Origin: a virus
Lineage: Duplodnaviria > Heunggongvirae > Uroviricota > Caudoviricetes
DNA length: 46,229 nt
IMG/VR virus record: IMGVR_UViG_3300027908_000001
Coordinates: 151,167 to 197,395 of that record
Strand: one strand, 5' to 3'
Positions within the stretch are counted from its first letter, which is position 1. Each line of letters opens with the position of its first letter. Below the pieces are notes generated by a model. That model was not told the DNA's origin. It searched no databases and saw only the letters and a list, made by a program, of their open reading frames with translations. A program made the position numbers and the translations under genes. This document shows positions 42,267 through 42,492 of the stretch, one piece after another.

Positions 42267-42492
42267 TTCATGCAACTCATAGCCGGAGTTCTGGTTGATT
42301 TCCGTCCATTTGTCTGGCCGCCGGTGGCCGTTAGCGTTCTGTACCCGCGACTCAATCGGCGCAGCACTACGCCATCGTCGCCTATTTGAACTTGCTGTTA
42401 CTGCGGTCGTAGTGGCTTGCGCCTGCCGTAGCTGCTGAACAGCCCCGAGCTTGCCTCACCGGGTTACCGGCGCGGACGGTCGGTCGCATGAA
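42267..42492 (-). ncRNA. rnpB: minimal RNase P RNA (catalytic domain only)
   Basis: P1 TTCATGCGAC/GTTGCATGAA; P2 CCGTCC/GGACGG; P3 hairpin; GAGGCAAGCTCGGGG; AGCAAGTTCAAATAGG; AGACAAATG; CAGAACTCCGGCTA. Confidence 0.8.

Follow-up and report, generated by a model that had tools for sequence, protein, structure and literature searches.

RNase P RNA is, to our knowledge, treated as a universal cellular ribozyme, and the question raised by the locus described here is whether a tailed phage has a working copy of its own that does without the specificity domain (S-domain), the part of the bacterial RNA that contacts the tRNA elbow. The locus lies in a 46,229-nucleotide (nt) stretch of DNA, hereafter the window, which is the final 46 kb (positions 151,167 to 197,395) of the 197,395-bp phage record IMGVR_UViG_3300027908_000001 of IMG/VR. 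The record has direct terminal repeats and encodes a terminase, a portal and tail proteins, and an independent ENA assembly (ERZ28653432) was 100% identical to the phage over the 6 kb compared. A preliminary description of the window had proposed a minimal RNase P RNA at 42267-42492 and had linked the loss of its S-domain to tRNAs with aberrant T-loops. Our analyses indicated that the locus is a real homologue of bacterial RNase P RNA; judging from its sequence, we put at roughly two-thirds the probability that it is a working gene for the catalytic RNase P subunit and uses the RnpA protein of the host.

A scan with Rfam 15 at the gathering score detected nothing at this locus. When an E-value threshold was applied, the bacterial class A RNase P model RF00010 aligned globally, over model positions 1-367, to 42264-42491 on the minus strand with a score of 50.4 bits. 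The E-values were 1.4e-14 for a search of 601 nt, 4.5e-13 for 19 kb and 1.1e-15 for the whole 197-kb genome, in which this locus was the sole match. RF00010 was the best match from its Rfam clan, lower-scoring clan members being suppressed in the output. A covariance model of phage RNase P RNAs (R2), built without the window RNA, produced a single match in the 46-kb window, at 42278-42459 on the minus strand (46.2 bits; E-value, 5.9e-11), and this match extended from end to end of the model (positions 1-157). The identification of a phage-encoded RNase P RNA was thus borne out by global alignment to RF00010 (E-values of 1e-14 to 1e-15), and the expected covariance-model match was obtained with both models. 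The extent also agreed with the original proposal to within 1 nt, as P1 closes 42268-42491 on the minus strand. These results confirmed that the locus is a homologue of bacterial type A RNase P RNA. The S-domain positions of RF00010 were deleted in the alignment, which indicated an RNA that is derived from the bacterial type A form and has been cut down to the catalytic domain (C-domain) and a small stub resembling P7/P9.

A map of the individual helices (P), joining segments (J) and loops (L) contained 61 canonical pairs out of 62 once P3 had been manually re-registered by one position, and 58 of 62 as scripted; shuffled sequences had 21 canonical pairs on average and 35 at most. The RNA has P1 to P6 and P15 to P18, as well as the bulged U in P4 and the GGU that binds CCA (Table 1). 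The conserved segments were also all retained, namely, CAAG in J5/15, AAAUAGG in J15/16, GGU in L15, AGA..AAUG in J18/2 and CAGAA in J2/4. Every motif quoted in the preliminary description was found, with P1, P2, P3, the P4 strands and the conserved segments in order. The hallmarks of type A were observed in the form of P15-P16-P17 with the L15 GGU and a P6 pseudoknot between J5/7 and L17. One detail had to be revised: the bulged U of P4 had been thought to be shifted or replaced by C, but the bulge at U42448 is intact and J3/4 is merely 1 nt longer than usual (GAGGCA versus GAGGA). P4 consists of 3 bp, the bulged U42448 and 5 bp, and the same geometry was obtained for Escherichia coli with the same duplex program. 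Once a gap had been opened, all eight P4 pairs were within the variation of 59 phage RNase P RNAs.

Table 1. Elements of the phage RNase P RNA and its immediate surroundings (window positions)
Feature	Position	Strand	Details
Minimal RNase P RNA, whole	42268-42491	-	224 nt, from P1 5' strand to P1 3' strand; RF00010 and model R2
P1 5' strand	42483-42491	-	Pairs with 42268-42276; 9 bp, one G-U
P2 5' strand	42474-42479	-	Pairs with 42302-42307; 6 bp
P3 hairpin	42457-42472	-	6 bp (one G-U), UAAC loop; register set by hand
J3/4 (AGGCA) and P4 5' strand AGC[U]CGGGG	42443-42456	-	Bulged U at 42448; P4 strand 42451-42443
P5 5' strand CUGU	42439-42442	-	Pairs with ACAG at 42395-42398
P6 pseudoknot 5' strand CAGCA	42433-42437	-	Partner strand UGCUG (42362-42366, P17 loop); 5 Watson-Crick pairs
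S-domain remnant	42401-42431	-	31 nt; P7-like stem 42426-42431/42401-42406, one A.C mismatch, encloses 19 nt
J5/15 (CAAG), P15 5' strand (UUC), J15/16 (AAAUAGG)	42381-42394	-	Exact match to Rfam consensus
P16 (4 bp) and P17 (4 bp)	42348-42380	-	8-nt loop UAGUGCUG carries P6 3' strand
L15 3' side CGGGUACA, then P15 3' strand GAA	42337-42347	-	Contains the GGU pairing with the tRNA 3' CCA
Short P18	42316-42329	-	4 bp; 6-nt loop ACCGGC, not GNRA
J18/2 (AGACAAAU), P2 3' strand, J2/4	42289-42315	-	Ends CCAGAA; relatives ACAGAA
P4 3' strand CUCCGGCU	42281-42288	-	8/8 pairs canonical
Spacer AUGUUUUC	42260-42267	-	8 nt; ribozyme 3' trailer and tRNA-Ala(GGC) 5' leader
tRNA-Ala(GGC)	42184-42259	-	Immediately downstream of RNase P RNA
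tRNA-Trp(CCA)	42563-42638	-	71 nt upstream of RNase P RNA

The absence of a specificity domain (P7-P14) was examined at the level of the single helices. P8 and P10 to P14 are absent and a P7/P9 stub is all that remains, in agreement with the earlier proposal. The approximately 45 nt first assigned to the place of the S-domain was close to the 42 nt found between the P5 strands, but 5 of these form the P6 strand and 31 nt form the stub itself. Inside P7, the 19 enclosed nucleotides comprise 2 nt, a hairpin GGC-GCAA-GCC at 42414-42423 (3 bp with a GCAA cap) and 7 nt. The stub aligned column for column with those of eight other minimal phage RNase P RNAs, which have an identical 19-nt layout. The tetraloop of the stub is of the GNRA type in seven minimal RNAs (GAAA in five, GUAA in one and GCAA in the window RNA), and the non-GNRA tetraloops among minimal RNAs were UUCG, UCAC, UUAA and similar. 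By analogy with L9, P1 is a candidate docking site for the GCAA loop of the stub. Docking of a GNRA-looped P18 into P8 has no counterpart here, as the P18 loop is ACCGGC and P8 is absent.

An RNA of this form could belong to an enzyme that is split or has changed partners, the elbow being read in trans by another RNA or by a protein of the phage. In vitro, separate S- and C-domains are able to reassemble in trans, and an orphan protein of 213 amino acids with a weak RNase H-like match is encoded next door, at 41520-42161 on the minus strand, directly downstream of tRNA-Ala (RVT_3, borderline at 21.5 bits). This protein had zero homologues among 1.8 billion representative proteins and is therefore not a conserved partner. 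Searches for a separate S-domain RNA detected no second RF00010 match in 26900-46229, at E-values of up to 5, or genome-wide. The spacer upstream of the RNase P RNA (42492-42562) folded no better than shuffled sequence (z of -1.06), such that its hairpin was not significant. A split enzyme was consequently judged to be most unlikely.

Relatives of the window RNA were sought with sequence patterns. A first scan of viral sequences with the J5/15-P15-L15 motif matched 31 viral contigs, and the large contigs among them had RNase P RNAs of 260-384 nt located inside tRNA arrays at 5-7 nt from the adjacent tRNAs. A second pattern, representing the 3' core (L15, J18/2, J2/4 and the P4 3' strand), detected 70 loci in IMG/VR, most of which are on contigs of 50-365 kb. 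Over these loci, the spacing between the P4 5' strand and L15 varied continuously between ~104 and 259 nt; more than 12 had a spacing of 104-115 nt, and the window RNA has one of 111 nt. Viral scans requiring the canonical J5/15-P15 motif close to P4 produced no match. Comparison of 14 minimal cores, including that of the window, revealed a mean column identity of 54% and 33 invariant columns, all of which are shared by the window RNA. As the family was sampled by sequence pattern, the invariance of GGGUA, AGA..AAUG and ACAGAA is partly by construction. A covariance model built from the 14 cores (R1) matched 59 phage RNase P RNAs in 77 sources, with S-regions ranging from 15 to ~150 nt and about 15 RNAs being minimal.

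Pairing was conserved throughout this family. In the model-based alignment of the 59 RNAs, 93.6% of cells were paired, compared to 67.7% for shuffles and 31-38% when the partners were slid, and changes on both sides were observed for 24 of the 29 family pairs. Examples from P4 included pairs with the compositions GC30/AU10/CG9 and AU20/GC15/CG10, and the bulge column of this helix was a U in 59/59 members. P7 also covaried across the family, and RNAalifold analysis of a plain MAFFT alignment recovered both P4 and P7 with compensatory changes. The P6 pseudoknot lies outside the model; at least 5 bp could form in 28 of 47 cognate combinations versus 7.2% of non-cognate ones, and an earlier test had detected at least 4 bp in 10/10 cognate versus 25% of non-cognate combinations. 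The window RNA was the most divergent member, scoring 46 bits with R2 versus 102-160 bits for training members with R1. Minimal relatives mostly lack P18, having 5-12 nt between the GGGUA of L15 and J18/2, while the window RNA has 26 nt in this place, including a 4-bp P18. Overall, these comparisons indicated that the window RNA belongs to a family of size-reduced RNase P RNAs that is widespread among phages.

Two sets of candidates contributed no further minimal forms. A supposed second mini form of 214 nt, L014:2569-2782 on the plus strand of a 5.6-kb viral contig, contained just the 3' part of a canonical RNA, starting at the 3' strand of P10/11; the P4 5' strand is missing and there are no tRNAs in the vicinity. 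This fragment may be a duplicated piece of an attachment site and not a ribozyme gene. A metagenome pattern scan for minimal forms yielded 120 matches, and all were ordinary full-length bacterial RNase P RNAs. These matches were uninformative because the pattern part GAGGNAAG also fits the conserved P13/P14 sequence G(A/C)GGUAAGAGC. In deposited phages, blastn searches with four phage RNase P RNAs detected nothing relevant.

Several observations weigh against a working gene in this phage or against a general role for such genes. The Rfam score of 50.4 bits is half of the curated cut-off of 100 bits. The core departs from near-universal features in having the extra J3/4 nucleotide and, in P4, a G.U as well as swapped pairs. 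The first A of ACAGAA is a C, and the core alignment has an A here in all 13 other minimal RNAs, an invariance that derives partly from selection as the search pattern required ACAGAA. Covariation was assessed on a model-based alignment, which is biased towards the structure of the model. Covariation was seen family-wide, with none specific to the lineage of the window RNA, the only other assembly being 100% identical. Lastly, the cultured, tRNA-rich Caulobacter phage CcrBL9 was devoid of such an RNA in searches with RF00010 and R1, and hence a phage can have many tRNAs and do without an RNase P RNA gene.

The low Rfam score, the missing S-domain and the absence of lineage-specific covariation would also be in keeping with a decaying, non-functional relic of a captured rnpB gene, and, as there is no covariation within this lineage to argue otherwise, function could have been lost recently. 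A relic is difficult to reconcile, however, with intact helices (61/62 pairs), detection of the RNA by an independent family model and a spacing from its neighbours like that of a tRNA. There is also no raw deletion scar; instead, the same layout of P7, a 3-bp tetraloop hairpin and 7 nt recurs in eight phages that look unrelated. We therefore regard decay as very unlikely, and a working gene remains the preferred interpretation.

The setting of the gene pointed to the tRNAs of the phage as substrates. The minus strand of the window contains 32 tRNAs called by ARAGORN, three further tRNAs called by Rfam only and a transfer-messenger RNA (tmRNA), and the RNase P RNA is located inside this array on the same strand, between tRNA-Trp and tRNA-Ala(GGC). 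Consensus scans for a promoter or terminator of its own detected matches only at chance level. The 5' flank of the RNA (GAUAUU) resembles the U-rich leader pattern of the tRNAs, whose leaders are short and AUUUY-like (8 nt before each tRNA; 27042-45850, minus strand), with U or C at position -1 in 30/32. Many of the phage tRNAs are only 1-12 nt apart, and this tight spacing would make endonucleolytic separation by RNase P necessary; separation of polycistronic operons by RNase P in E. coli is reported in the title of one paper (PMC7049720). CCA is encoded by 30/32 phage tRNA genes and no CCA-adding enzyme was detected in the phage; these CCA-encoding genes fit the retained GGU of L15. Five other phages (L220, L188, L229, L241 and L224) were observed to encode CCA in 0 of 7-19 tRNA genes and to keep the GGGUA of L15, but this motif was required by the search pattern and its retention in CCA-less phages is no independent evidence.

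The bacterial enzyme can bind and cut substrates without the S-domain through the P4 core, J5/15, pairing of the L15 GGU with CCA, J18/2 and J2/4. All of these elements are retained in the window RNA. Bacterial RNase P RNAs consisting of the C-domain only are catalytically active in vitro (PMC5839562). For the E. coli C-domain without the S-domain, a P6-like contact was needed for efficient cleavage and P18 was dispensable (PMC5839562), requirements that the retained P6 and degenerate L18 of the window RNA fit. No RnpA was detected in the window phage or in 10 further phage records containing an RNA of this kind, 6 of these records being rated 100% complete. As there is no phage RnpA, assembly with host RnpA is the simplest model. 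A search of the phage for PRORP had no match, and the same search also matched nothing in any control genome.

A working gene would operate as follows. The RNA would be transcribed together with its tRNA neighbours in the minus-strand array, and cleavage by RNase P at the 5' end of tRNA-Ala(GGC), located 8 nt downstream, would free the 3' end of the ribozyme RNA. The predicted fold is the type A catalytic core, with P1 to P5, the P6 pseudoknot, P15 to P17 and a short P18, and this fold would bind host RnpA. The resulting complex is proposed to strip the 5' leaders from ~33 phage tRNA precursors. Grip on the substrate would come from the acceptor stem, from the 3' CCA with the GGU of L15 and from the protein on the U-rich leaders, with no contact between an S-domain and the elbow. 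The phage would probably gain extra or host-independent capacity for tRNA processing in infection.

The protein-binding regions of the C-domain could have been kept, in a phage without rnpA, for a different purpose. As a decoy or sponge and a poor catalyst, the RNA would titrate host RnpA or pre-tRNA leaders and so reprogramme or shut down tRNA maturation in the host; the core positions that depart from consensus, the extra J3/4 nucleotide and CCAGAA, would be in keeping with poor catalysis. A decoy would have no need, however, for the bulged U, P6, the CCA-binding GGU or a J5/15 of the active type, all of which are conserved over the 59 phage RNAs. Furthermore, the ~33 close-packed tRNAs of the phage itself need 5' processing, such that blocking RNase P would harm the phage. 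This role was considered to be unlikely relative to that of an active enzyme assembled with host RnpA.

The preliminary description had also suggested that loss of the S-domain suits a phage with many aberrant T-loops, the ribozyme having specialised for aberrant elbows because an S-domain would reject tRNAs with non-canonical T-loops. The T-loops are non-canonical in 8/32 window tRNAs and the D-loop GG is missing in 6, and to this extent the premise of aberrant tRNAs was upheld. The outer tertiary pair of the elbow was apparently kept in four of the eight. In the tRNAs at 29555-29632, 30856-30931, 31192-31267 and 33038-33114, position 56 of the T-loop is changed to G or U, and position 19 of the D-loop, as read by eye from the loops, is changed in step to C or A. 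Replacement of G19-C56 by C19-G56 or A19-U56 would preserve this pair by covariation. The S-domain stacks on the 19-56 pair by shape and not by sequence.

A comparison of 38 phages detected no association between the size of the S-region and the fraction of aberrant T-loops (Spearman rho of +0.21; p of 0.21), and the pooled levels of aberrant T-loops were 21.8% versus 15.7% (Fisher p of 0.12). Aberrant T-loops amounted to 0-12% in five of the eight minimal-form phages, while phages with large S-regions reached 29-37%. The lone case fitting the T-loop idea was L228 (IMGVR_UViG_3300006931_000029; 225 kb), which has a minimal RNase P RNA and in which the T-loop is non-canonical in 15/17 locus tRNAs and the D-loop GG is missing from 14. 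Adaptation to aberrant T-loops is not supported as a general rule; it could still apply to this particular phage, although nothing was found in its favour, and specialisation of the ribozyme for such elbows appears improbable as an explanation for the lost domain.

Comparison with known RNase P RNAs placed the window RNA with the bacterial enzymes. Its catalytic domain is the same, helix for helix, as that of the E. coli M1 RNA encoded by rnpB (RF00010), with P1 to P5, P6, P15 to P18, J5/15, J18/2 and J2/4. Bacterial RNase P RNAs are typically 350-400 nt in length, whereas the window RNA has 224 nt, lacks P8 and P10 to P14 and has a P7/P9 stub. It also differs from RF00010 RNAs in its non-GNRA L18, the additional J3/4 nucleotide, its location in a phage tRNA array and the absence of a cognate rnpA. 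Bacterial-lineage RNase P RNAs without peripheral or S-domain helices are known from fungal mitochondria (RPM1) and Mycoplasma fermentans (~276 nt). These reduced RNAs are organellar or cellular, have a dedicated protein partner and are not found in tRNA arrays. The window RNA resembles them in having lost peripheral and S-domain helices but is viral and is situated in a tRNA array. It is similar to the engineered E. coli 'CP RPR' of the Kirsebom laboratory in keeping P6 and having a degenerate P18; those constructs are laboratory deletions of reduced efficiency, whereas the window RNA is naturally encoded and has a closing stub that is conserved. With other minimal phage RNase P RNAs it shares the tRNA array, the layout of P4, P5, P6 and P7, the 19-nt stub and the covariation range of P4. 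It differs from these relatives in retaining the short P18 and the segments CAAG and AAAUAGG (CAAC and AAACAG in the relatives) and in having the extra J3/4 nucleotide and CCAGAA.

The closest architectural parallel is archaeal type T, in which the C-domain is kept and the S-domain is reduced to a P7-P9/P10 stub, often with a GNRA loop (PMC3579882). The window RNA likewise keeps the C-domain and has its S-domain cut to a stub, and the analogy drawn in the preliminary description holds at this level. Type T RNAs have an archaeal-type core and work with the archaeal proteins Pop5, Rpp30 and Rpp29. Archaeal RNase P RNAs, including type T, lack L18 (PMC3579882). Features of an archaeal-type catalytic domain (a short P2 and no L18) were not found in the window RNA, which has P6, P16, P17 and P18. 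The comparison of the two cores indicated that the resemblance to type T is convergent. The existence of type T RNAs implies that an enzyme can function in nature with no more than a P7-P9/10 stub (PMC3579882).

Other features of the phage were noted in passing. Three tRNA-like genes at 27608-27681, 28320-28391 and 34666-34738 on the minus strand scored 43-54 bits with the Rfam tRNA model and had no ARAGORN call, and weaker tRNA-like matches were present at 35029-35098 and 45068-45137. The tmRNA (16224-16642, minus strand; 419 nt, 123 bits) has a long insertion after the tag region and adjoins a TnpB/Cas12f-like OrfB_IS605 gene at 14217-15413 on the plus strand. The phage also encodes a full-length protein of the sigma-70 family (13060-14376, minus strand), in which regions 1.2, 2, 3 and 4 are all present. 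A protein of 550 amino acids (36510-38162, minus strand) had no Pfam match and more than 160 homologues of 40-58% identity in large phage contigs; in three of the neighbourhoods examined, the homologue adjoins a radical-SAM (LAM_C) gene and is near tRNAs. No RNase P RNA was detected within 10 kb of homologues of this protein. A search for related loci with two neighbouring proteins found none. Relatives of the terminase at 51-70% identity were found only in ENA/Logan contigs, including a 176-kb ENA contig with a terminase of 59% identity, and IMG/VR relatives, with a terminase identity of ≤34%, had no RNase P RNA. Outside the window, at 106897-108315 on the minus strand of the phage record, there is a PurZ-like gene (phrog_1211, '2-aminooxy adenylosuccinate synthetase'; E-value, 3e-69), and hence the phage DNA may contain 2-aminoadenine in place of adenine.

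In the literature searched, including a comprehensive 2024 review of RNase P, we found no account of an RNase P RNA encoded by a phage or other virus, and only tRNAs and a tmRNA were detected in a study of megaphages (PMC8172020). Annotation has a blind spot here: the curated Rfam threshold misses the window RNA and several other reduced phage forms. On balance, we favour the view that large phages commonly carry an RNase P ribozyme of their own and that a recurrent catalytic-domain-only form, including the window RNA, processes phage tRNA arrays without reading the elbow, whether with host RnpA or alone. If this view is correct, these would be the smallest natural RNase P ribozymes of the bacterial lineage and the first known virus-encoded ribozyme of the core machinery for maturation of translation components, giving phages control over tRNA 5' maturation. 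If the RNAs are active, phages with large tRNA sets would bring the maturation enzyme too, and the viral translation toolkit of tRNAs, tmRNA and synthetases would extend to a ribozyme. Nature would, in that event, have repeatedly made an enzyme without an S-domain, for which bacterial RNase P needed engineering, and the graded natural series of S-regions from 15 to ~150 nt could be used to ask what the S-domain does. The cores of 155-180 nt, if active, would be compact, covariation-validated starting points for structures and for minimal RNase P tools.

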